DNA from: Anolis carolinensis
Taxonomy: Eukaryota
NCBI RefSeq assembly: GCF_035594765.1
Contig: NC_085845.1
Location: 190,294,897 to 190,358,896 of the forward strand
Length of the DNA stretch: 64,000 nucleotides
Direction: 5' to 3'
In this document: in pieces, positions 1 through 64,000 of the stretch
Numbering within the stretch: the stretch's first letter is position 1
How the letters are laid out: each line of letters begins with the position of its first letter
Notes under the pieces: model-generated
Told to the model about the DNA's origin: nothing
Databases searched by the model: none
The model's input: the letters and a program-made list of their open reading frames with translations, nothing else
Program-made: the position numbers and the translations under genes

Positions 1-1616
1 AATCATGTCTACATTCCTCCAGGACCGGGCAGGGAAAAAGCACTTCGTCTGTGTCATGACTGCAAGCCAGCAGGGCACTACGGACTATTTAAAACCATGC
101 ATTTGATCCTAAGAGATTTCTGGTGGCCCAAGATCCGCAAGGATGTGGAAAAATATGTCAACACCTGCCCAGTATGCCAGCGCTCCAAGACAAGAAGGGA
201 AAAGCCCTCAGGGCTTCTGCATCCCCTCCCTACCCCATCTCGCCCATGGGAAATAATCTCTGCGGATTTTATCACTGATCTACCACCTTCTTGTGGATTC
301 ACCACCTTTTTACCAAGTTAGCCCATTTCATTCCCTGCGATGGCCTTCCCACGGCCAAAGAGACTGCAGATTTATTCCTTCAACATGTTTTCAGATTGCA
401 TGGATTGCCCAAGAGTTTGGTCACAGACCGTGGGTCCCAATTCACCTCTCGTTTCTGGAAAGCACTACAAAAACTATTGGGCATAGACTCTCATTTATCT
501 TCGGCTCACCATCCCCAAACGGATGGGCAAACTGAGCGCACCAATGCCACTCTGGAACAATACCTTCGCTGTTATGTGAACTACCAGCAGGACAATTGGG
601 CTTCCCTGTTACCGCTGTCAGAGTTTGCCTATAACAATGGTGTCCAGGCCTCGACTAAAGAAACCCCGTTCTTTGCAAACTACGGCTTCCATCCACGTTT
701 CTTTCCTCCTGTCATTGAAACCTCAGAAGTTCCCGCAGCCGAAGACTGGCTGCAGGAACTCACAGCGGTGCAACAACTTTTGCTCCAGCAACTAGACCAA
801 GCCAAGGAGGACTATAAACGTCACGCGGACAAACATCGCCAGCCGGGCCCCGAAATCAAGGTAGGAGACCGGGTTCTTCTGTCCACTCGCTTTTTGCCCT
901 CCCATCGCCCTTGCCGGAAGTTAGATGCCCGTTTCATTGGTCCCTATCCAGTGGTGGCGCAACTTAACCCCGTGACTTTCAAACTCCAACTCCCACGCTC
1001 TATGCGCATTCATCCAGTGTTTCATCGCTCTCTGCTCCTTCCGGCGGATGGTGTGCACCCTGATGTAGACCGGCCGGCCCCCACTCCTATTTTGGTGGAT
1101 GGGGAGGAGGAATTCGAGGTTCAGGACATTTTGGATTCTCGCTTTCACCGCCACCACCTTCAATATCTCATTGACTGGGTGGGTTTTGGCCCCGAGGAAC
1201 GCTCTTGGGAAGACGCTTCCACAGTCCATGCCCCAGATTTAACCCGCCGTTTCCATCAGACCTATCCCGCCAAGCCGCGGCCTCGCGTCTCGGGGAGAGA
1301 GTCCCAGTTTGAGAGGGGGCTTGAGGAGGGGGATAGTGTGATGACTCATGGGCCATGTAGTCCCGTTCCTAGTGCTGTTGTGACAGATGAAGAGGAAAAC
1401 TTGGGTTTTCCACCATTTCAGCCAGAAAGGGAACTTTCCCAGCCTGAATTAGAGCCCTTGCACCTGCAGGAGGTTTGTATTCCAGAAATCTGCCAAACAA
1501 GCCCTGAGTCAAAATCTCCCCCATTTTCTCGCCGTAATTATTATCTACAACAAAAAGGAGTTCAGCAGGCTAATCGCCGAAGCCTGAGAATCGCAACAAA
1601 GCATTCTGATGATTAA
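1..1616 (+). pseudogene. pol: pol 3' part (integrase, chromodomain and LTR-encoded tail), frameshifted at about 305
   Basis: Frame +1 is open from base 1 (CHDCKPAGHYG...CPVCQR...WEIISADFITDLP). A short deletion at about 305 removes the expected ILVVVD-type segment and switches frame to FTKLAHF...TDRGSQF...HPQTDGQTER...GPY...HPVFH...chromodomain (1110-1256), ending at TAA 1614-1616. Confidence 0.95.
1323..1336 (+). promoter_or_regulatory. Polypurine tract (plus-strand primer) of copy A
   Basis: GAGGAGGGGGATAG lies immediately before the LTR start TGTG; copy B has the same arrangement. Confidence 0.9.
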
Positions 1617-2251
1617 GCCTGCTTCCATGAGAAATTTTAGGGAGTCGTACATCTGGACACAGAGATTGACTTTCGTTTCTGGTTTCCCCAGAGAAGTGTT
1701 CTCTGGTGGGAAACGAGGCCCTATTTAGGTTCCTTGCCCCTTTTGGAATCTTGCGGAGTCAATTCGTCAGCTACTGGAGTAGCGTGTGTGGACAGCTACT
1801 CCGTTTCCAAGCCTTGTTCCTGTTTCCAAGCCTCCGTTCCCAGCCTTGTTTACTTCCACGGATCTTGCCTTGCTTCCCGGACCTTGCCAAGTAAATTCCA
1901 CGGATCTTGTTTTTGCTCCTCATTTCTTGTTGCCTTGTTCAAGCCTTGTGTTCCAAGTATCAAGTTATTTCCTAGCCTTGCTCAAGTTTCATGGACTAAA
2001 GGACCTTGTCATCTCCCCTCACTTCGCTTGGCGAAGTGAGTGTTTCGGTTATTGGATTACAACTTGGGACCTTAATATTTCATATTGGACATTGTTTCTT
2101 TGGACTAATTTTGACCTTCCCTGAAAGGTCTATTCCTGAACTATTTCCTACACTTGCTTTTATTAATCTTATATATTTCCTTAATAAAGATATTAGTTAG
2201 ATTCTGGCCTCTGTGTATGGTTATTGGTGCTCTGCAGCCTGGGTCGTGACA
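1337..2251 (+). repeat. 3' LTR of copy A (915 bp)
   Basis: Starts TGTGATGAC, ends GTCGTGACA; both ends align with the copy B LTR ends. TATA-like TATTTA at 1722-1727 and AATAAA at 2183-2188. Confidence 0.95.
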
Positions 2252-11583: not shown

Positions 11584-11917
11584 GGAGTCCTTGGTGGTTC
11601 AGCAGATTAAATTGCTGAGCTGTTAAACTTGCTGACTGAGAGGTCAGCAGTTCGAGTCTGGTGAGCAGGGTGAGCTCCCGCTATTAGCCCCAGCTTCTGT
11701 CAACTTAGCAGTCTGAAAACATGCAAATATGAGTAGATCAATAGGTACCACTCTGGTGGGAATGTAACGGTGCTCCATGCAGTCATGCCAGTAGCCACAT
11801 GATCTTGGAGGTGTCTAGGTCAATACTGGTTCTTCGGCTTAGAAATGGAGATGAGAACCAACCCCCAAGTTTGGACATGACTAGACTTAATGTCCAGGAA
11901 AAAACTTTTCCTTTACT
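11584..11917 (+). mobile_element. Sauria-type SINE (older copy)
   Basis: tRNA-like head with GTTCGAG B-box, core GAGTAGATCAATAGGTACC and degenerate ACCTTT tail; aligns with 16981-17304. Confidence 0.85.
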
Positions 11918-13169
11918 TATTCATTACAGAAGACTTCCGGTGCATTATTTTCCAATGTATTTTGAGAAGAGGAATAGGAGTTTAAATTAGGATGCACTGG
12001 GAAATGTAGATCACAGGAGTGCACAGTAGCTCTCGCTCAGAAAATTTTAAGTAGGACCACAAAACTACCTGTTTGTGTGTTCTGAATAGTGAAAGCAGGT
12101 AAATATTTTCCTAAATCAACTTGGAATTTTGACAGAAGTTTCCCTGTTCTCAAAATGCCATGGATTGAATCCACAGAAAATTTGGCTCAGTACAAGTAAG
12201 GATGGATTATAGTATTTGAGAAAGTGCCTGCTGAAGATTTTTCAGCAAGCTGTTTTCTGTTTTGGTTATGGAAATCAAAGGATTCAGTGGTAAGCATGGC
12301 ATTTTTGAAACAGAGGCATATCAGTGGCTCTGGCGGGAAAAAACACGTTATTGCTTGAAGTTATAATTGTGAGGAAAATAAGACGATGGTGTTCAAATGA
12401 AGCTTGACAGCCCGCATTGCAGGCGAGAGCCATCTGTGCTGTGGCAGCTCTGTTTGTATTTTAATGTTTAAACATACCACAAAGATAATTAAGAATAACT
12501 ATAATTAAAAATGATTACAACAAATTACTTTTCTCTCAACAGTAATGCGTGCCGGAAACTTATAACTTTATATAAAAAAGGTTACTTTATCAAGTCAAAG
12601 AAAAAATAGAAGTCTTATTCAGTTTTTCTCCCTCCCTCCTTCTTCTGTGTATATCAGATATATACATATAGAGAGAATGTGTGTGTGTGTATGCACACAC
12701 ATATACACACATGCATATGCACACAAAAATACTCATTAACATTCTGTAGTCAAGCAAAGGACTACTGTGTGCCAGTAAAAAACGAACTGTGCAACTGATA
12801 TAAATTACACAAGTCATGCAGACATTCCAGCGATGTGCAAAAGAAGCTAGTAGTTTCTCTTTAACGTCAACTTTTTGTAATATATTCTGGATTTTCCTAG
12901 TTCTGGAAGTCTTATTTATGTACACAAAGAATCAGTGAGTACAAAGGCTGGTTGGTAGGAGACATGGGGCAGCATGCAGGAGCCTTGCCTCAACACCCTT
13001 ATTCATGTCAACTCCATCACTGTCAAATTCATATATATAAGTCTAGAAATTTTAGTCAAAAATATGATCTAAACAAAATTTGGTCAACCTATTTATAGGT
13101 CAATACAAGTACTTTTCCTTAATGCTTATTTCTGAGTGGAGTGGTGAAAGGTCTAACTTGGGAGAACCT

Positions 13170-16980: not shown

Positions 16981-17304
16981 GGAGCCCTAGTGGCAAAGTG
17001 TGTTAAAGCACTGAGCTGCTGAACGAAAGGTCGCAGGTTCAGATCCAGGGAGCGGAGTGAGCGCCCGCTGTTAGGTCCAGCTTCTGCCAACCTAGCCGTT
17101 TGATAACATGCCAATGTGAGTAGATCAATAGGTACCGCTCAGGCAGGAAGGTAACGGCGCTCCATGCAGTCATGCCCATGGCCACATGACCTTGGAGTTG
17201 TCTACGGACAACACCGGCTTTTCGACTTAGAAATGGAGATGAGCACCAACCCCAGAGTCAGACATGACTGGATTTAACGTCAGGGGAAACCTTTACCTTT
17301 ACCT
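16981..17304 (+). mobile_element. Sauria SINE, full length
   Basis: GGAGCCC start, tRNA-like head, (ACCTTT)n tail; TSD TATCCAAAGAT/TATCCAAAAAT (16970-16980, 17305-17315). Confidence 0.93.
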
Positions 17305-19339
17305 TATCCAAAAATAGTTTGGGCTAAAAGCAATCATTTGAGGAAATATGCCAAGGGAAGACTTGCTTTTATTGTCTCATGTGTGGGCTATCAGGGATAT
17401 CTGGCTGTAAGGAGAAAGATGTTGGACAAGATGAACCTTTGATCTATCTCCACACAGTATTATTTTCTAAACTTGTGAGCCTGCAACTACCGACTGATGT
17501 AGTATAGTCATGGAAAGCTGTTATCACATCACTTCTCTACATGTGTAAATTGGCTGAAAGGCTTCTGAACATCAATCAGTGTTGGGCTATCTGCCAGAGC
17601 TTGGGAGCATGGGAGGAGATGTCACAGAATATCTTCAAAATGCACTCAAATTGAAACCACAGCTTTCAGAGGCATGGAAATTGGCAATTGTTGTTTGTTC
17701 ATTTGAAGTCTTTGAATTTGTGGGTGCCTGCTTCTCTTTCTTACATATAGGTAATATAGTTGAATCCTAGACTGGATAAGATGCTGCATACTTGCTCACA
17801 ATGCTAGTAATGTGGCTTTCCCTTTTGTTTTGTAGCTAATAAAATGAAGGGTCCAATGATGTTTTTACATAGGAAGAAGAATTTAGGATTCTACTCTTTT
17901 TTGTGTGTGCTTAAAATGAGTCTTCTACTGTTGACACTTTTCTGTATACGAAAGCACAAGGGGGCAGCATTACATTAAAATAAATTGCCGCGCTATATGT
18001 TCATCTATATTACTGAATAATCCACAAGCTGTAACTTTCCAGTAGAATGGAAATGTGTGGTTTTAAAACTGCTTGGCCAGACACCACTGCAGGATCAGCT
18101 TATTGGACCAGTGGCCTATAAAAATGAAATAGGCATTTGAAATGCAAAAGGATTTGCTTCCTCAGGATGCAGCCAATTGCATAACATGTTATTAATGAAA
18201 TATGTGCACATACTTGTGCTTATCTTACAGTCTTGCTAAAGAGAACTTTTCAGTGGCCTTTGCTCATACTTTCTGATGGTTCAACTCACCTCACTGAGCC
18301 AGTCTTGGTAAAAAGCTCTGTCAGTATCTCTCCAACCATATGCCAAAAATGAACTGGTACAGAAGATGATGAGAAGGGTTTTGAAAGTCTCTTCTGAATT
18401 ACAGCTCCCGCAACTTTATCCAGCATAACGAATGGCGAAGAATGTTGGGAGTTGTAGTCACCAGCAATGTTGAGAGGGCTCCATGATTCCAAACCTTTTT
18501 TGAAAATAGGCAAGTGGATTTTCAAAAACTCTGGGCTTTGAACTGGGAACTTAATGCTTGGGATTTGCATCGATGGTATGCAAGTTGCATGATCTCTGCC
18601 ACCAGCACGACAGGGGCCAAAGTCCTTATTAGCACCATAAGACACTATTACATGAACCTGCTATTCCACAACCACTACAGTTACCTTATTGTTGATAGCT
18701 GATACATGTTGAGCACCCTCAATTTTGCATCTCTTGCCATTAATACAATTGCATCAATTCACCAATGTGTGGTCCTGCAATTGTACTTCAATACAAACTC
18801 ATAACACTGCCTTCCTGCACTATTGCTGTTTCTTAATTTTATTTTTATCTTTAGTGCAATTTCACAATTCAAACATTTAAAATTTGAAGAACGCAAACAT
18901 ACATGTAATTAGTAAAATAAGTGTAAAACAACCAACACGGAAAAAGTGTGGAGCAGAGGGGAGAGTAGGAGAATCCCAACCCCTGACCACAATTTACTGC
19001 CTGCACAAAAGGGAAGGGATCCCTTGCACCAAGGTAGTTGGTGGAAACATTGTAGGCTTTGGTGATGTCAATGGATGTTACCTAACTAATAGGGGTGTGA
19101 AAAATTTTGGAGATTGTTTCGTATTTCGGGAGATTCAGGTGACTTGTAATTTCAAATCACCAAAAAAATGAACTGTGAAGTCAGCATCCTAATCTTTCTG
19201 AAGCAAAACAGTCGTTCTGAAACGTTTTGGAAAAATTTCAGAAGGATTTGTTAATTGAGAGCATTTTTTAGAATGTAACAAAATTGCCTGGGGTGGGAGG
19301 GAAGGGAGGGGGGCTGAACGTGGCAGCTGCAAAGAGCAT

Positions 19340-22168: not shown

Positions 22169-22448
22169 CTTAATGCTGTTCTATGACCGTAATAAAGATT
22201 TGTTTGTTATGTCCCATCTCCTAAAGAAGGCTTCAGCCCTAGTGACATCAATAACAGTCCCCGAAAGTAGAAAGATTAAAAGCTACACTTGGATCAAATA
22301 GGCACTATGTAGGATGGTTGAGATAATGTTGGTAGGTGGACTTCTCCAAACAACTGCTGCATAGGTAACATTAAAAAAATAATTCCCTTGACTCCAACCT
22401 GACACGGAAAGGATAATACTTTCCCCACAATTTCCAGATTTGTAAATA

Positions 22449-22771
22449 CAGTAGAGTCTCACTTATCCAAGCCTCGCTTATCCAAGTTTCTGGATTATCC
22501 AAGCCATTTTTGTAGTCAATGTTTTCAATATATCGTGATATTTTGGTGCTAAATTCGTAAATACAGTAATTACAACATAACAGTACTGCGTATTGAACTG
22601 CTTTTTCTGTCAAATTTGTTGTAAAACATGATGTTTTGGTGCTTAATTTGTAAAATCATAATCTAATTTGATGTTTAATAGGCTCTTCCTTAATCCCTCC
22701 TTATTATCCAAGATATTCGCTTATCCAAGCTTCTGCCGGCCCGTTTAGCTTGGATAAGTGAGACTCTACTG
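22449..22771. mobile_element. Young Tc1/mariner-superfamily (Tigger/pogo-like) MITE, 323 bp
   Basis: Perfect 24-bp TIR CAGTAGAGTCTCACTTATCCAAGC and TA TSD; second copy at 58687. Confidence 0.93.
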
Positions 22772-23046
22772 TAACGGGATGATTGTGGTGGTGGTGGTGA
22801 TAAAAATAGGAATGTATTTATATCACCAAGTATTTTCTGGGTAATTATGAAAAAGAAGAAGGAAGAGGGGAGAACGAGAAGAGGAAGGGAAAGAAAAGGA
22901 AGAAGTGGAGGAGGAGGAAAAGGAGGAGGAAGAGGAGGAAGAAGAAAACGAAGAAGAAGAAAAGGAAAAGGCCACATCAATCTCTGCAGTTGAGGCTGCC
23001 AATAACTTGGTGTAACTCTGCACCATTAATTTCTTCCAGAGTGACA

Positions 23047-32761: not shown

Positions 32762-33628
32762 TGTGAGGACTCATGGGCCTTGTAGTCCTGTTCCTAGTAC
32801 TATTGTGACAGACGAAGAGGAAAACATGGGGTTTTTGCCGGTTCAGCAAGAGCCGGAGTCTCTTCACCTGCAGGATGTTGATGTTTGCCCTCAAGAATTC
32901 AGCCAAACAGGCCTTGGGCAGAACTCCCCACCGTTTCCCAGAAAAGAATCTTATTCCAGAGAAAGGGGAGCCAGGGAGGCCCAACGGAGGAGTTCACGCT
33001 TAGCTGCCAAACATCAAGCTGATTAGGTCTGCTTCCCTTGGGAAATTCTAAGGAGTCACACATCTGGACAGAGTTGGGTTTCGTTTCCCGTTCTCTAGGG
33101 AAAGAGTTCTGTTGATGGGAAAACGAGACCCAATATAGGTGTTTGGCGCGAGGAATTCTTTGCGGAGTCAATTGATCAGTTAGAGGAGAGAGATCGTGTG
33201 TGGACTTCGTAATCCCAGTTCCTTGCTTCCCGGATCAAGCTTCAAGCCTTGCCCTGTCTCACGGTTTTACCACGGACTCTGTTTCATGCTTCATGTTTGC
33301 CTCGTTTTCAGTCACGGATCTAGCCAAGAATCAAGTTTATTTCCAGCCTTGTTGTCAAGCTTCATTGGACTTTAAAGACTCTGTTATTTCCCCACACTAT
33401 TGCTTGTTAAAGTGTGTGTTTCGGTCAAGTGGATTAAAACTTTGAACTCTAATATCTTATATTGGACAATACATTTCTGGACTATATTTGACCTCATCTG
33501 AAAGGTCTGCTTCTGAACTATATTCTTCACTTGTTTTTATTGATTTTATATATTTCTTTAATAAAGATATTAGATAGAGACTGGCCTCTGTGTAAGGTTA
33601 TTGGTGCTCTGCAGCCTGGGTCCTGACA
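32762..33628 (+). repeat. 5' LTR of copy B (867 bp)
   Basis: TGTGAGGAC...GTCCTGACA; about 7 substitutions versus the 3' LTR by eye; TATA-like AATATA at 33132-33137 and AATAAA at 33560-33565. Confidence 0.97.
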
Positions 33629-33630
33629 GT

Positions 33631-33640
33631 TTGACTCCGC
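33631..33640 (+). promoter_or_regulatory. Self-priming primer-binding site
   Basis: TTGACTCCGC is the exact reverse complement of GCGGAGTCAA (33162-33171), which lies about 30 nt downstream of the TATA-like box; there is no TGG tRNA-type PBS. Confidence 0.85.
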
Positions 33641-33671
33641 CACCTTAAGCACCAAACAACCTAAGGCCAGA

Positions 33672-34654
33672 ATGTCTACAGGAACCGGAGCGGAGGCTCA
33701 ACCACTCAGTTACACCATTTCCCAAGATGAATTCAATCGAATCCGCGACACACTCCGCAGGAGGGAGAAATACGGGGCTTGAAGGAACGCGGAGCCCGTC
33801 TCCCTGCCCTAGCGCTATCAACCAAGTTTTCTGGAGAAGCCTCCAAGGTTCATGTTTTCCGTCGCCAGTGCCAGGCGTACTTAGAAGCCCACCAAGCCGA
33901 GTTTCCCCAAGAAGATGTCAAAGTGGCGTGGATCTACAGTCTCCTAGATGGGCCTGTGGCCACTTGGGCGACGGCGCTATATGATGCGGGTTCCACGCAT
34001 CTAAGCACCGCGCAAAATTTCTTGAACCACCTTAGAAAGACCTGGGGGATCGAGGACGACGAGGAGGCGGCCGGCCATAAACTCTGGCGTCTCTTCCAAG
34101 GGGACAGGCCGTTGTCCCGGTACATAGCCGAGTTCCGGGTGCTGGCTCAGAGCACCGGCTGGAACGATATAGCCCTTAGAGGACAGTTTCGTGAGGGCCT
34201 CAACATCGAGATGCAGGAAGAAATCTCTAAGGTAGATCCCCCAGGGACTCTTGAGAGACTCATCAACCAGTGTTTACGAGCCGAAGCCCTGCTTGCCAAC
34301 AAAAAACAGTGGCTCCGAGGCCAGAGTGGAAGAGCCGGAGTGAAACCCCCCGCTTCTGCCAGTGTTCAGCCACGTCCAGTATGGAGATCCCCACCGCCAG
34401 CCCCAAACCCCATGGGAAGCGAGGAGGAGCCGATGCAGTTGGGCAATGTGCGCCCCAGACTAGATGCTGCCGAAAAGGCCCACCGCCAATGTTTGAATCT
34501 GTGTTGGTACTGCGGGAATGGGGGCCACTTCGCCAGAGAATGTCCAGCCAAAAAGAAGCCCGCCGCCCGCCTGGCGGTGGCGTCCTCCGCGGAGCCGGAG
34601 GCGGCCGAGGCGGCTGGAGCAAAGCCGGCAGGGGAAGCCAGCGACCGGGCGTAG
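33672..34654 (+). pseudogene. gag: gag (capsid-like retrotransposon gag domain plus CCHC zinc knuckle), frameshifted near 33757
   Basis: ATG at 33672 gives MSTGTGAEAQPLSYTISQDEFNRIRDTL, then the frame shifts to QEGEIRGLKERG...KFSGE...LFQGDRPLSRYIAEF...FREGL...EPMQLG...CWYCGNGGHFARECP, ending at TAG 34652-34654. Confidence 0.92.
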
Positions 34655-35913
34655 AGAGGCTCGCCAACCCGGTCAAAAACCCCACTCAAGAGCCGCAAAC
34701 AGGGGTCCTATTTCTCCTGGTGGTCACGCTGTGGTCAGTGAAAAAAGGACCCGTCATGATCCATGCCATGATAGACTCAGGGGCAACAAACAATTTCATC
34801 GATAGAGAGTATGCTGACTCTCTGGGATTACAATATCATGATTTCAAGAATGCCCAGGTGGTGCAGGCCATAGATGGCCGACCCCTAAAGACAGGTCCAG
34901 TAAGCCAATGGACTGAACCCACCAGAATGTGGATAAGGGAACACATGGAAGAAATTTCTTTCTTCGTTACCGAGGTTCCCCACTTCCCTGTGATTTTGGG
35001 TATTCCATGGCTGACACTCCACGACCCAAACATCTCCTGGTCCAACAGAGAACTGCAGTTCGCCTCAAGATATTGCCAAAACCATTGTCTAGTAGCCAAG
35101 GTCTGCCATGCCACAGACGCAGAGCCCATCATCACCTTGCCCAAGAAATATTCGGACATTTGGGATGTTTTCAATGAAAAGGAAGCTGAGAAACTACCCC
35201 CACATAGACCCTACGACTGTGCCATTTACCTGGTGGAGGGGGCCCCAATTCCGCGAGGACACCTCTACTCCCTGACTGAACCAGAGCAAGAAGCTCTCAG
35301 GGAGTTCATAGAGTCAAACCTCCGCAAGGGGTTCATCAGACCCTCTCAATCCCCAGCAGCTTCCCCAGTGATGTTTGTGAAAAAGAAGTCAGGGGACCTA
35401 CGCTTGGTTGTGGACTATAGAGCATTGAACAATATCACGAAGTGGAATCGCTACCCCCTGCCTCTGATCTCGGACCTATTAGACCGGCTCCGAGGGGCCA
35501 AGGTTTACACCAAGCTGGATCTCCGCGGGGCTTACAATCTAGTTCGCATAAGAGAAGGGGACGAATGGAAAACCGCCTTCCAGACCAAATTCAGATTATT
35601 TGAGTCCCTAGTCATGAATTACGGATTATCCGGAGCTCCCGCAACATTCCAGCATTTTGTCAACGATATCTTCCAGGATTATCTAGATCGGTTCTTGATC
35701 ATATATTTGGACGATTTTTTGGTGTATTCTAGATCACAATCAGAACACGAGCAACACGTCAGAATGGTGCTACAACGATTGCGGGATCATGGACTATATG
35801 CCAAGTTAGAGAAATGCGCCTTTGATCTGCAAGAGGTAGACTTCCTGGGATACTGCGTCTCGCCACTAGGGCTCTCCATGGACCCGGCAAAGGTTTCAGC
35901 AGTATTGGAATGG
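34630..35913 (+). CDS. pol: pol 5' part: aspartic protease and reverse transcriptase, in the -1 frame relative to gag; truncated by a deletion
   Basis: AMIDSGATNNF (Asp codon at 34774), ILGIPWL, LPPHRPYDC, LVVDYRALN, KLDLRGAY, KTAF, YLDD (35704-35715), KCAF...FLGY, DPAKVSAVLEW. Confidence 0.95.
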
Positions 35914-37187
35914 CCATCCCCTGCGATGGTCTCCCCACGGCCAAAGAGACTGCAGATTTATTCCTTCAACATATTTTCCGACTACATGGATTGCCCAAGA
36001 GTTTAGTCACTGACCGTGGATCTCAATTCACCTCTCGTTTCTGGAAAGCACTACAAAAACTATTGGGCATAGACTCTCGTTTATCTTCAGCTCACCATCC
36101 CCAAACGGATGGGCAAACTGAGCGCACCAATGCCACTTTGGAACAATACCTTCGCTGTTATGTAAACTACCAACAGGACAATTGGGCTTCCCTATTACCT
36201 CTGTCAGAGTTTGCATACAACAATGGTGTCCAGGCTTCAACTAAAGAAACCCCGTTCTTTGCAAACTACGGTTTCCATCCACGTTTCTTTCCTTCTGTCA
36301 TTGAAACCTCAGAAGTCCCTGCAGCGGAGGACTGGCTGCAGGAACTCACAGCGGTGCAACAACTCTTGCACCAGCAACTGGATCAAGCCAAGGAGGACTA
36401 TAAACACTACGCTGACGGTCATCGCCAACCGGGCCCCGAGATCAAGGTAGGAGATCGGGTTCTGTTGTCCACTCGCTTTTTGCCCTCCCACCGTCCCTGC
36501 CGGAAGTTAGATGCCCGTTTCATTGGTCCCTACCCAGTGGTGGAGCAACTTAACCCTGTGACTTTCAAACTCCAACTTCCGCGCTCCATGCGCATTCATC
36601 CGGTGTTCCATCGTTCCCTGCTCCTTCCGGCGGATGGTGTACGCCCCGACGCGAGCCGGCCGGCCCCCGCCCCTGTTTTGGTGGACGGAGAGGAAGAATT
36701 CGAGGTTCAGGACATTTTGGATTCTCGCTTCCATCGCCGCCGCCTTCAGTATCTCATTGACTGGGTAGGTTTTAGCCCCGAAGAACGCTCCTGGGAAGAT
36801 GCTTCCACAGTCCATGCCCCCGACTTAGTTCGCCGCTTCCATCAGGCCTACCCTACCAAGCTGCGGCCCCGCGACTCTCGGAGAGGGGCCCTGATTGAGG
36901 GGGGCCTTGAGGGCGGGGATAGTGTGAGGACTCATGGGCCTTGTAGTCCTGTTCCTAGTACTATTGTGACAGACGAAGAGGAAAACATGGGGTTTTCGCC
37001 GGTTCAGCAAGAGCCGGAGTCTCTTCACCTGCAGGATGTTGATGTTTGCCCTCAAGAATTCAGCCAAACAGGCCTTGGGCAGAACTCCCCACCGTTTCCC
37101 AGAAAAGAATCTTATTCCAGAGAAAGGGGAGCCAGGGAGGCCCAACGGAGGAGTTCACGCTTAGCTGCCAAACATCAAGCTAATTAG
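35914..37187 (+). pseudogene. pol: pol 3' part: N-terminally deleted integrase, chromodomain and LTR-encoded tail
   Basis: IPCDGLP... is nearly identical to copy A through the chromodomain (36696-36842); out of frame with RT; the stop lies inside the 3' LTR. Confidence 0.95.
36909..36922 (+). promoter_or_regulatory. Polypurine tract of copy B
   Basis: GAGGGCGGGGATAG directly before the 3' LTR. Confidence 0.88.
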
Positions 37188-37789
37188 GTCTGCTTCCCTT
37201 GGGAAATTCTAAGGAGTCACACATCTGGACAGAGTTGGGTTTCGTTTCCCGTTCTCTAGGGAAAGAGTTCTGTTGGCGGGAAAACGAGACCCAATATAGG
37301 TGTTTGGCGCGAGGAATTCTTTGCGGAGTCAATTGATCAGCTAGAGGAGAGAGATCGTGTGTGGACTTCGTAATCCCAGTTCCTTGCATCCCGGATCAAA
37401 CTTCAAGCCTTGCCCTGTCTCACGGTTTTACCACGGACTCTGTTTCATGCTTCATGTTTGCCTCGTTTTCAGTCACGGATCTAGCCAAGAATCAAGTTTA
37501 TTTCCAGCCTTGTTGTCAAGCTTCATTGGACTTTAAAGACTCTGTTATTTCCCCACACTATTGCTTGTTAAAGTGTGTGTTTCGGTCAAGTGGATTAAAA
37601 CTTTGAACTCTAATATCTTATATTGGACAATACATTTCTGGACTATATTTGACCTCATCTGAAAGGTCTGCTTCTGAACTATATTCTTCACTTGTTTTTA
37701 TTGATTTTATATATTTCTTTAATAAAGATATTAGATAGAGACTGGCCTCTGTGTAAGGTTATTGGTGCTCTGCAGCCTGGGTCCTGACA
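36923..37789 (+). repeat. 3' LTR of copy B (867 bp)
   Basis: Direct repeat of 32762-33628, followed by the TSD ATCAA. Confidence 0.97.
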
Positions 37790-58334: not shown

Positions 58335-58659
58335 GTAAAAAGGTAAAGGTTTTCCCCTGACATTAAGTCCAGTCGTGCCCGACTCTGGGGGTTGGGGCTC
58401 ATCTCCATTTCTAAGCCGAAGAGCCGGCGTTGTCCGTAGACACCTCCAAGGTCATGTGGCCAGCATGACTGCATGGAGCGCCGTTACCTTCCTGCCAGAG
58501 CGGTACCTATTGATCTACTCACATTGGCATGTTTTTGAACTGCTAGGTTGGCAAAAGCTGGAGCTAACAGCGGGTGCTCCCGCTGCTCCCGGGGTTTGAA
58601 CCTGGGACCTTTCGGTCTGCAAGTTCAGCAGCTCAGTGCTTTAACACACTTCGCCACCA
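58335..58659 (-). mobile_element. Sauria SINE
   Basis: Reverse complement of 16981-17304; TSD TTATATAT on both sides. Confidence 0.93.
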
Positions 58660-58686
58660 TTATATATCTATATCTCTATATATATA

Positions 58687-58993
58687 CAGTAGAGTCTCAC
58701 TTATCCAACACTCACTTACCCAACATTCTGGATTATCCAAAGCATTTTTGTAGTCAATGTTTTCAATACATCGTGATATTTTGGTGCTCAATTCATAAAT
58801 ACAGTAATTACTACATAGCATTACTGCGTATTGATCTACTTTTTCTGTCAAATTTGTTGTATAACATGATGTTTTAGTGCTTAATTTGTAAAATTATAAC
58901 CTAATTTGATTAACCTTAATCCCTCTTTATTATCCAACATATTTGCTTATCCAACGTTCTGCCCATTTATGTTGGATACGTGAGACTCTATTG
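58687..58993. mobile_element. Tigger/pogo-like MITE (family of 22449-22771)
   Basis: TA|CAGTAGAGTCTCACTTATCCAA...TTGGATACGTGAGACTCTATTG|TA. Confidence 0.92.
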
Positions 58994-61257
58994 TATATAG
59001 CCTGTTTGACTAATAAAAAAATGTTTCAATACTCCTTACTAAATTAGAGGGCGGGTTGAATCTAAACTATTTCTAAAATATTGTAAGGGGTCTGTATCAT
59101 AACTATAATGATATCATGATATTTTCATTACTTTTTCATTATGTAATTGTGCAAGTGGGGAAGCTTCTGGGACTCCATTCTCCCTCATTTTTAGAGCTAT
59201 CAAGATAAAACTTGCTGCAATTGTAGAACACATGTACCACTCTCTTTCTCTCTCTCCCCCCCTCCCCCAAAGTTTCAGAATGCTTCACACATCCACTGAT
59301 TTTTGGGATTTAAAAAAAATTATGAACAACATTTTTTTTAAAAAAAAATCTACAAGAGCCATTTCCTTGAATGTCTATTTTCAATGATACAACATAACCA
59401 GGGCATCATTCCCCCCAAGTTTCAGAAAGATTTGCACATCCATGGATTTTTAGGGCATATTAACCAACACAAACTTAACAGTATTATTTCACTAGAGGAC
59501 TCCAGGGAACATCCAGTCCAATCCCCTTTTGCCTAGCAGAAAAAGTATAGTCAAAGCACCCCGAACTGATGCCCATCCAGCCCTTGAAAAAATAATAATA
59601 GTAGGAAACCTATTAGGTAACATTGAAGTTACTACCGCTCAACTTTGCCTATCTCAAAGGGTTGATTCAACCCCTAACAGTCCCCTTTTATCTCAAAATC
59701 TCTGTAGAGAATGAACATGGGTTTTCCCCCATCAAAACTTTCAGGGAGAGGGAGAAGGCACAATGTGGTAAGCAGAATTCTGGGAAACGTAGTTTGAGAA
59801 GGCAAGGACCCCTGTGACAGAGAATTCAAAATGCCTCACCCTAAACTACATTTCCCAGAATGCTGCTCAATTCAGAATACGACCCTCATTAAAGCCCTAA
59901 TATGATCTTTGCCTGTCTCTTTCTGGGCCAGCCATATACTGGAGGGGCTTCTTTCTTGCCCGGCCATCCAGCCAGACTTCCCTCCCTCCTGAGCCGCCGC
60001 TCCCTTTGGAGAAAGCCCCGCAGGGCCCTTTGGAGGAACCAACCCAAGCCTTTTTGGGGGAGAAGCAGTGCGACTGAGACCTGGAACCACATATAAGACT
60101 TACATAGCTCTTCTGAAAAGTCATAGGTCAGTGTTTTTAATCCTGATTTTTTTTTTTGGCGTTGGTGCCATGCAACATATGAGATACAAACAACTTTTTG
60201 CACAGCCCTAATATATGTTGCAATAGTTCATGGATGAGTGAGCTGAGTTCCACAAGAACTCCAATCCTATTTTTAACACCAGCTAGAGAAAATAAATTGA
60301 ATTGGTTGGGTTGACCCATATGTCAACTCACCATTGAATAATTTAAACGCCAGATGCGTATCTGCATTACACAAGTTATAGCTCTTTGATAGCATTTTAA
60401 CTGTACTGCCTGCATTCAATGGAAGCCTGAAATCCACTGTTTGTTAATGTACTTTGAGGTCCTGTTAGAAAGTTCTAGTTCCCATTGAACTACACCATTA
60501 GTGCCATTCAGCAAAGAATTTACAGTACCTTCCCTTACTACAAATCCCAAAATTAAATTGGATGTAGCCATGGCACTTTAAAAAGCATGAAACTTGTATA
60601 AAGGGGTGTGTTTGGTTGATTAGGGGACTATATACATTTGACTGGTGTGAAGAACTGACAGTTGTACTTACCCTTCTATGGAAGCATGTTGTGGCCAGTG
60701 ATATAGCATTTGCCACTGCTTCCCACACCAGCCCAGTATTAAGTGTGATCTCAGAGGGATGGAAAGTCAGGCGTTTGCTTTCCTTCCAGAAGTCTCACCA
60801 AAGGGACTGGTCTATGCCCTTTTGTGAATTGATTGTCATTTCCAGAAGGGTAGGCAGACTATTGTCCGCACTGATGTTTCAGCTAAGGGAAAGGTAATTT
60901 ACCAGTGCTGAAATGTCACTTATGTGATCGGCATCAAGAACAGTGTGAGAGTATGTGTATGTAGATAGATTAAGGTAACACAATGGTCTTAAACTGATTC
61001 ACATTCTCCAGACTGGGTGGGTGGATAGAGGTTGCTTAAAGGCTTTTAACCATCAAGACAAAATTGCATAGTCTTCTGCATAAGCATGAAATCTATGGTG
61101 ATTGTTGAACTAGCTGGGTACTCATCTATTGCTATGTTAGCTTCCCCTTTTTAAAAATTGGGGGGAGGGGGCTACTGAGAAGGTAGATAAGCAAAACACA
61201 GCTGGGCCAATTAACTAGGAGAAGAAGTTGTTTCCAGGTTTTGGCCTGTGTTATGGC

Positions 61258-62703: not shown

Positions 62704-63871
62704 GTTCTTAACTTTTGAATTGCACCTACTAAAAAGAAATAATAGAGCTGATTCATTACTAAGTTTCCATTCAAATTTTTGTGAATGGATTTCATAAAAT
62801 TACAGCCTGCATATTCACTCTTTCTTCTATTTTGGAGGGTGCATACTAAGTTAGAGATACATGGGTTGCTGCTGAATAAGGAATTTTATCAAATCCATAT
62901 CCTCTCAATCTAAAGAGAATGAGCCGTTCTTCTGATCTTGGTTGATCTTTGCAAAGTGTTAATTGAGAAAAGATTACTGCTCCTGCAGAGAGTACAATGC
63001 GGAGACACTCCAAAGAAATTGATAGTGCATTTGTAATCAAGACTCAAAGGCTAGTAAAGGATTAGGTACAAAATCAGAAAAGTGTTATTATGAAAAGGAT
63101 GCCTACTAAAATTGAGGAGCTATAGAATCTCCTCACCTGTCAAATTAACTAAGAAATGGAAGACAAAAGGAGAGAGGCCATGATCAGAGTACTTTAGAGA
63201 AAATTTTAAAGAACTCTAAAACGGGGGAGTGGACAAGCATTAATGTAATTGCTTTGTTCATGATCAAGGAGACATATTCATGCAGGGGAAACGTCCTTGT
63301 ACAACCATTAACTCTACCTACCCCCTTTTACTTGCCAGAAAAGAATCTACTTAGTTCTCTGTGGAAATGTTGCCAAATATTTACCCAAATGAAAATATAG
63401 ATGTACATCTGGACATTCCAGTTTTGGAAAAGGCTCTGATGAGCTCTAGGATAAAGATGAAGAAATTTTGATAAAACAAGAAAATTTTCTAAAGTGCATT
63501 TTTCACATTCTGATGCTGATACGGAACTGTATCAAAAAGCAAAATCAGAGAGGAATAGAGTTTCTTATTCTAAATTAAATACGAACAGGAAAATTTCTTA
63601 CATGAAGAGTTGCTGACATGTTCTTAGTTTTAAACACAGAGGAAATACAACAAAGGTCTATCTCATTATGTTTTTAAATGAAAGGCATTTTAATACATCA
63701 GGTTTTAAAAGGAATGACATTTTGAAATGTCTCACAGAGAAGGAGTGAGAGATTTGGTCTCCTGAATGGTTAAGGATGATCCATGGATGGCCAGAGGCAA
63801 AGGCATAGGTGTATCTTGCACTGTGGGGTGTGTTCTTCCTTTATCAACTTCCTGTCTCTTATCTATGAAGT

Positions 63872-64000
63872 AAGGTAAAGGTAAAGGTTTCCCCTGACGT
63901 TAAGTCCAGTTGTGTCCGACTCTGGGGGTTGGTGCTCATCTCCATTTCTAAGCCGAAGAGCCAGCATTGTCCGTAGACACCTCCAAGGTCATGTGGCCGG
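63872..64000 (-). mobile_element. Sauria SINE 3' end (runs off the window)
   Basis: (AAAGGT)n tail and body nearly identical to 58335-58460. Confidence 0.92.

Follow-up and report, generated by a model that had tools for sequence, protein, structure and literature searches.

An Anolis chromovirus whose U3 encodes the conserved end of Pol, a candidate chromatin anchor for integrase

Coding sequence within the U3 region of a long terminal repeat (LTR) is familiar from HIV nef and MMTV sag, which overlap U3 as separate accessory genes carried on spliced RNAs. In plant CRM group A elements, Pol itself is described as continuing into the 3' LTR, where the CR targeting motif is encoded (PMC3059260, PMC3605345). 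Among chromodomains, a group I is defined by an aromatic cage of Y, W and Y (PMC3605345) and by binding of methylated H3K9. Complementarity between the PBS and the 5' end of the RNA is the self-priming mechanism reported for Tf1 (PMC4600332). Short arginine motifs are described as docking on the nucleosome acidic patch, as HMGN proteins bind it via RRSARLSA, cryo-EM places HMGN2 RRSAR and Dsup RRSSR (RRSSRLTS) on it (PMC12487698), and yeast Dot5 binds it with RRSARIAT, in which arginines 1, 2 and 5 are required (PMC13347269). Foamy virus Gag and MLV p12 are likewise reported to tether integration complexes via the acidic patch (PMC9040877). In the Anolis carolinensis element described here, a protein-coding U3 is real and well supported, with a layout that is known and a proposed mechanism that is specific and likely but unproven.

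The DNA analysed, hereafter the window, comprises 64,000 nt of the A. carolinensis assembly GCF_035594765.1 (contig NC_085845.1, 190,294,897 to 190,358,896, forward strand). Self-comparison and translation revealed two copies, A and B, of one LTR retrotransposon family (Table 1), and the LTR coordinates and lengths (915 versus 867 nt) given in an earlier note on this DNA proved right. The element is a Ty3/Gypsy chromovirus without env. Pfam matches cover retrotransposon gag, CCHC, aspartyl protease, RT, integrase core, a Tf2-type SH3 domain and a chromodomain, and copy B displays the Ty3/Gypsy arrangement of gag, protease, RT and then integrase between LTRs of the form TG...CA with a target duplication. 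The RNase H is deleted from copy B and present in the relatives P0001 and P0002. The chromodomain at the integrase C-terminus scores above the PF00385 cut-off in both copies and carries the three aromatic cage residues of group I, here F, W and F at A2 columns 6, 27 and 30; for copy A the cage positions follow a spacing that we take to be that of HP1. Neither copy is whole, as A is frame-broken and begins before the window start, and B, which spans 32762-37789 with a 5-bp target duplication (ATCAA) and LTRs differing at 7 sites, is internally deleted. Genome-wide, the junction between polypurine tract (PPT) and LTR gave 4937 exact matches versus 1 for a reversed control. Self-BLAST also found other short interspersed repeats in the window, at 11607-11924, 16990-17306, 22443-22773, 58339-58995 and 63865-63998.

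Table 1. Features of the two element copies in the window (positions count from the first letter of the 64,000 nt)
Feature	Position	Strand	Remarks
Copy A 3' part of pol (integrase)	1..1336	+	frame-breaking deletion near 300-311
Integrase SH3/GPF-Y domain (PF24626)	864..1040	+	Pfam E 1.6e-15
Chromodomain (PF00385)	1113..1259	+	Pfam E 7.5e-9; F, W, F at three cage positions
Polypurine tract, also codons (EEGDS)	1323..1336	+	
Copy A 3' LTR, 915 nt, TGTGA...TGACA	1337..2251	+	self-comparison, translation
U3	1337..1752	+	boundary inferred from self-priming complement
LTR-encoded Pol tail, 92 codons and stop	1338..1616	+	acidic first 55 residues, SPxFxR block, basic end
HMGN-like motif, RRSLRIATK in copy A	1575..1601	+	RRSARIAAK in commonest subtype
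TATA-like element TATTTAG	1722..1728	+	31 nt upstream of inferred RNA start; function inferred
Inferred RNA 5' end (R start), GCGGAGTCAA	1753..1762	+	complementary to PBS
Polyadenylation signal AATAAA	2183..2188	+	
Copy B 5' LTR, 867 nt	32762..33628	+	Pol-type frame open 87 codons
Self-priming PBS of copy B	33631..33640	+	10-nt complement of R start
Copy B gag (capsid, CCHC), protease, RT, integrase	33731..36922	+	RNase H and integrase start deleted near 35910-35915
Copy B 3' LTR, 867 nt	36923..37789	+	tail 36924-37187; motif RRSSRLAAK 37146-37172

The Pol frame of copy A is open from the chromodomain across the PPT to a TAA at 1614-1616, leaving 92 codons within the LTR, and in copy B it is open for 87 codons in each of the two LTRs, so that the start of U3 is open in all three LTR copies, as the earlier note had claimed. 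The indels between A and B, read there as frame-keeping, are indeed -7 and +2 codons (net 15 nt), and the synonymous-type differences are equally real, with the same residue at 48 of 85 aligned codons and a different codon at 20 of these 48. The description of the two integrase cores as nearly identical was overstated, however, as they share 89.7% of nucleotides and 308 of 336 amino acids (dN 0.043, dS 0.39). Genome searches delivered eight LTR subtypes, each represented here by one real copy. Across these, about the first 280 nt of the LTR encode a tail of 85-97 residues whose frame is continuous with Pol in every subtype having a 3' copy. The first 55 residues of the tail contain 10 D/E and 1 K/R, and the last 37 contain 8 K/R. 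In UniRef entries the tail is already included in Pol, with no remark on it.

The position of the tail within U3 follows from the inferred start of the RNA. Behind the 5' LTR of copy B lie 10 bases, placed as the PBS, that are complementary to GCGGAGTCAA, which in the LTR of copy A is sited at 1753. A PBS complementary to the R start follows the LTR in 7 of 58 non-3' LTR records as well as in window copy B, and the remaining records, without such a PBS, were read as solo LTRs. In subtype E (two copies, L064 and L072) both partners are altered, with A in R and T in the PBS, a compensatory change. This complementarity places the RNA start, likely the 5' end of the genomic RNA, at 1753 and U3 at 1337-1752, and the tail therefore fills two thirds of U3, its stop lying 136 nt before the inferred RNA start. 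Since the AATAAA at 2183 is downstream of that start, the genomic RNA would contain the tail. Beyond the stop, the non-coding sequence shows conservation of about 0.7 with no codon periodicity and includes the TATA-like word; promoter function is likely confined to this stretch (1617-1752).

Comparison of the eight subtypes points to selection on the encoded protein. Over the tail span the Pol frame has 0 stops, versus 28, 62, 16, 31 and 23 in the other five frames. When the subtypes are aligned as DNA only, 6 of 6 internal tail gaps are multiples of three (33, 36, 15, 15, 15 and 12 nt), and in DNA-only pairwise alignments three divides 42 of 77 tail gaps, compared with 53 of 246 for one 270-nt stretch beyond the stop and 33 of 199 for a second. 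Split by codon position, the mismatch is 0.27/0.24/0.42 for the tail, whereas the 270 nt that follow the stop give a flat 0.31/0.29/0.30. The codon-aware dN/dS analysis that the earlier note had proposed (GY codon model, 85 gap-free codons, kappa on a coarse grid) returned a tail omega of 0.271 for the eight subtypes, with a likelihood-ratio statistic of 92.9 against omega 1. Constraint is concentrated in the first block (omega 0.21), in the SPxF block (0.27) and above all in the last 13 tail codons (0.079, p 2e-12 versus omega 1), and the columns invariant across all eight subtypes include R80, R81, S82, R84 and A86. The middle 25 codons show no departure from neutrality across the subtypes (omega 0.65, p 0.14). 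The earlier proposal that the tail is selected as protein is thus strongly supported and its division into acidic, linker and basic parts was right, yet constraint on the linker is not borne out. Among 10 representative copies, the median dS of the tail was 0.81 versus 0.42 for the integrase core, with the motif block highest; candidate causes of this excess are homogenising recombination in pol, CpG-rich arginine codons and synonymous constraint in pol.

Copies were also sampled by position: the listing of junction matches begins with 100 in the first 28 Mb of contig 1, and 93 of these were taken. Such sampling avoids ranking by similarity, although the junction pattern itself favours young copies. 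Frequent stops or frameshifts, which the earlier note had named as evidence against selection, were looked for, but 86 of the 93 tails are open to the motif and an equivalent stop, and the seven others each have a different defect; the 416 codons upstream of the tail are open in 79 of 93. Four subtype clusters account for 88 of the 93 copies, and within them the frame-breaking gaps of the tail comprise 0 shared and 3 private ones, against 33 shared and 19 private in the 300 nt after the stop. These gap events are only partly independent and the shared/private 2x2 split alone gives p 0.06, the signal being the contrast in shared gaps. For the 75 sampled copies in which integrase and tail are open, the omega of shared variants is 0.08 in the integrase core, 0.09 in the chromodomain, 0.77 in the linker before the PPT, 0.45 in the tail and 0.22 in its last block, and that of private variants is 0.34 in the integrase core and 0.65 in the tail. 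The 7 common indels in contigs from four public runs, of the same organism and of uncertain kind, are each a single nt long and confined to 1683-1987, with none preceding the stop. In every one of these runs a contig skips 1370-1750, with 22 letters on the short side, which may be a deleted LTR variant or a chance join. Subtype C is very young, with 37 of 40 scored matches at the top score and 100% identity over 520 nt (L121-L135), and together with its close kin it makes up 62 of the 93 sampled copies.

All eight subtypes end in RRS[A/L/S]R[I/L]A[A/T][K/R], four residues before the stop. The conserved RRS.R.A.K block seen in the earlier note is therefore confirmed, although its likeness to HMGN had gone unrecognised there; the R-R-S-x-R core, with arginines at positions 1, 2 and 5, is that of HMGN-like motifs. 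Among 229 LTR copies (four duplicate loci dropped), 209 are open to the stop, and these retain R1 in 207, R2 in 208, S3 in 209 and R5 in 206 copies. The four residues are specified by 5, 4, 2 and 5 different codons, respectively, the arginines being spread over CGN and AGR. Position 9 is K in 160 and R in 48 of the open copies, and position 4 is L in 64 of 209, window copy A included; the resulting RRSLR is not among the tested motifs in the text available from the acidic-patch papers compared. Of the 86 intact sampled copies, 73 have exact RRSAR and 62 RRSARIAAK, which is the same as Dot5 RRSARIAT at 7 of 8 positions; copy A reads RRSLRIAT there and copy B RRSSRLAA. Residue shuffles of the tails gave RRSxR[IL] in 162 of 400000 cases, a post hoc figure. 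A Pfam search admitting E values up to 10 returned no family, HMG14/17 among them, for any of the 8 tails, a PDB sequence search with the tail returned a single weak and unrelated match (E 0.31), and the ESM Atlas had no usable match to the tail of P0002. The resemblance is therefore one of a short motif and not of homology to HMGN. Complex prediction for the last 36 tail residues with the H2A and H2B of this genome gave 0.70, 0.01 and 0.02 in separate runs, with controls not folded, and was given no weight in either direction; AlphaFold 3 is reported to fail on the HMGN2-nucleosome complex as well (PMC12487698). A helix over residues 145-168, predicted by AlphaFold2 for chromodomain plus tail, was discarded because mean pLDDT was 50 and the chromodomain was misfolded.

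The frame is open, its indels keep phase, dN/dS is below 1, the R-R-S-x-R core is invariant on changing codons, and the whole tail lies inside U3. We give a probability of roughly 60% to the reading that the final 85-97 residues of Pol, encoded by the first 280 nt of the LTR, are under purifying selection and form a flexible nucleosome tether acting through RRS[A/L]R[I/L]AA[K/R]. The genomic RNA would include the 3' U3, and the tail would accordingly be translated as the C-terminus of Pol and would stay on integrase after protease cleavage. The roughly 55 acidic, low-complexity residues would act as a spacer from the chromodomain to the basic end, where the three arginines of the motif would insert in the H2A-H2B acidic patch, as in HMGN2, Dsup and Dot5. 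Chromodomain and tail together could then bind the nucleosome at two points, holding the integration complex on chromatin and biasing the insertion site. Two considerations may count against a tether, namely a conceivable protease site between chromodomain and tail and other ends that a five-residue basic motif could serve.

The tail could also be selected as protein for another reason, its basic end being a nuclear localisation signal or a general DNA- or RNA-binding patch. The 8 K/R of the last 37 residues would suit such a role, integrases of related elements from squamates and fish finish with different basic motifs, in some cases containing RGRP, and basic stretches of integrases are likened to nuclear localisation signals in the text available (PMC3605345). 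Yet the motif arginines are never swapped for lysine in the 209 open copies, although position 9 varies between K and R, and the serine is invariant while basic residues further upstream vary. A stereospecific arginine anchor therefore fits better than a charge patch, and we consider the latter unlikely. Somewhat less probable still is that the tail serves docking or regulation through a different partner, such as a targeting factor of the host, a switch under kinase control, a degron or the assembly of particles. Further conserved blocks, namely EN.F.P, SPxFxR and S-P pairs (omega 0.21 and 0.27), speak for it, as do the short C-terminal segments described for Ty1 integrase as binding host factors; constraint is nevertheless strongest over the motif matching acidic-patch binders that have been tested, and both readings can hold. 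It is very improbable that the tail is a separate small gene starting at the ATG of LTR nt 5-7 (1341) and expressed by read-in or from a spliced RNA. This ATG, at codon 2 in most subtypes, belongs to the terminal TGTGATGA attachment sequence and lies 412 nt upstream of the inferred RNA start, it is AGG in a B sublineage (window copy B and several of L031-L060) with the tail intact, and the frame is continuous with Pol in all subtypes that have a 3' copy. That the open frame is a by-product of a late stop, conserved for transcription-factor sites or U3 RNA structure, is least credible and largely refuted by the stop, omega and gap tests: the stop does fall within a DNA word that is itself conserved, (G/A)ATTA(A/G), and no part of U3 is better conserved than the initial 30 nt of the LTR, but conserved residues switch codons freely, fourfold sites diverge more in the motif block (0.60) than anywhere else in the region, and shared frame-breaking gaps, common after the stop, are absent before it.

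The earlier note had viewed U3 as dual-use DNA, in which a swap of LTR subtypes would change promoter and integrase tail together. Dual use holds for the PPT and for the integrase attachment end, which are cis-elements and codons at once. Beyond these, fourfold sites diverge more in the tail (0.38) than in the integrase core (0.27) or the C-terminal part of integrase (0.21), leaving no sign of enhancer-type constraint in the tail; fast-changing enhancers in the coding U3 may remain compatible with this divergence. Promoter and tail are physically linked in U3, but wholesale swapping of subtypes was not found. Among 3916 pairs of copies, 3 combined integrase parts that were both at least 97.5% identical with a tail below 90%, all within one subtype cluster, and 2 had the reverse pattern. 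Tail identity correlates with that of integrase at r 0.89 and 0.94 (the latter for the C-terminal part; the 3916 pairs are non-independent) and less closely with that of the promoter (r 0.76, 861 pairs). The contrast between core and LTR therefore mostly reflects faster LTR evolution plus local recombination. The comparison of LTR and integrase phylogenies, suggested earlier as a check for recombination, showed agreement of the main groups and conflict only locally (L193; L138 versus L164) when 27 copies were placed in separate trees for the core, the C-terminal part, the tail and the rest of the LTR. AU tests rejected the tree of each region on every other region, with 2000 replicates flagged as too few, and we read this conflict only as suggesting local recombination. 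Individual copies show mosaic tails or tail/integrase conflicts (L201, L144, L203 and L193), pointing to template switches in or beside U3, and the spacer of L193 is lengthened by a 7-codon tandem expansion that keeps the frame. At L012, L060, L172 and L032, LTRs of different subtypes stand in tandem or are nested, some of them linked only by a short integrase end and PPT.

Named relatives that contain the tail sequence are A. carolinensis records only, and there is therefore no cross-species conservation of the motif; P0001 and P0002 were dropped as cross-species support because near-identical tails are present in the A. carolinensis genome. Several Anolis gene models (P0043, P0044, P0048, P0054 and P0122, including two cation-transporting ATPases and an RT-domain protein) contain or end in the LTR tail, which is probably the capture of open solo LTRs by gene prediction, although exonisation of a putative chromatin-binding tail may be considered. 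Annotated chromovirus integrases of other squamates (Rhineura, Vipera, Crotalus, Salvator and Podarcis) run past a similar junction, DSV/GVM, into acidic tails, three of which end in basic clusters 85-105 residues on (P0071, P0134, P0168, P0075, P0081 and P0090). One such cluster has an RGRP core, which is presumably AT-hook-like. No RRSxR was found in the squamate tails looked up, ten proteins from the best 150 of 2900 representative matches. These tails, too, would overlap an LTR. It is conceivable, if somewhat doubtful, that squamate chromoviruses made U3 a coding cassette for an exchangeable chromatin anchor of integrase, with an acidic spacer of about 60-90 residues followed by an HMGN-type end in the anole and by other basic motifs in an amphisbaenian and two vipers. 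Cyprinid relatives (P0004-P0035) have PRPRGRPRRR after the chromodomain, and many end in SPE[F/Y] about 25 residues past a GGGSV junction.

The usual answer to how vertebrate chromoviruses choose insertion sites has so far been the chromodomain alone, and the acidic-patch motif is a nine-residue candidate for a second determinant. The family that carries it has about 4900 PPT-LTR junctions. If the reading is true, the anole integrase would be the first to bear an HMGN-type acidic-patch motif and would, together with the chromodomain, read nucleosomes at two points, and the few known carriers of such motifs would be joined by a mobile element. With two thirds of U3 evolving as protein, divergence between LTRs of this family is a measure neither neutral nor purely regulatory. 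A literature search with thin coverage of subscription papers and Repbase reports turned up no vertebrate chromovirus described as having a coding U3 and no integrase described as bearing an HMGN-type motif.

A coding U3 is common to the anole element and to HIV nef and MMTV sag, with the difference that the anole U3 encodes the C-terminus of Pol. The layout is that of plant CRM group A as described, where a chromovirus Pol frame passes the PPT into the 3' LTR and the LTR part is a putative chromatin-targeting segment. Unlike CRM, in which the CR motif replaces the chromodomain, the anole element keeps a group I-type chromodomain upstream of the PPT, and its LTR adds an acidic spacer and a short arginine motif in tails that match no Pfam family. 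In beet Bingo1-4 and 7 the frame likewise reaches the LTR after a chromodomain, with no constraint or motif described for the extension in the accessible text (PMC3605345). The element resembles Tf1 and the sushi group, as far as these are described, in its PBS complementary to the RNA 5' end, chromodomain integrase and AATAAA near the LTR end (PMC4600332, PMC3601003); the available LTR description of Sushi makes no mention of a coding U3 (PMC3601003), and cyprinid relatives seem, from protein records, to run only about 25 residues past the PPT. Like foamy virus Gag, with its CBS, and MLV p12 (PMC9040877), the anole tail would, by analogy, tether the integration complex via an arginine anchor on H2A-H2B, although those reported tethers are Gag products and the anole one would sit on Pol/integrase, paired with a chromodomain. 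Finally, the tail shares with HMGN, Dsup and Dot5 the RRSAR or RRSSR core with three arginines described as essential (PMC12487698, PMC13347269), yet those are host chromatin proteins, whereas the anole motif, with no homology outside the motif itself, is encoded by an LTR and ends a retrotransposon integrase.
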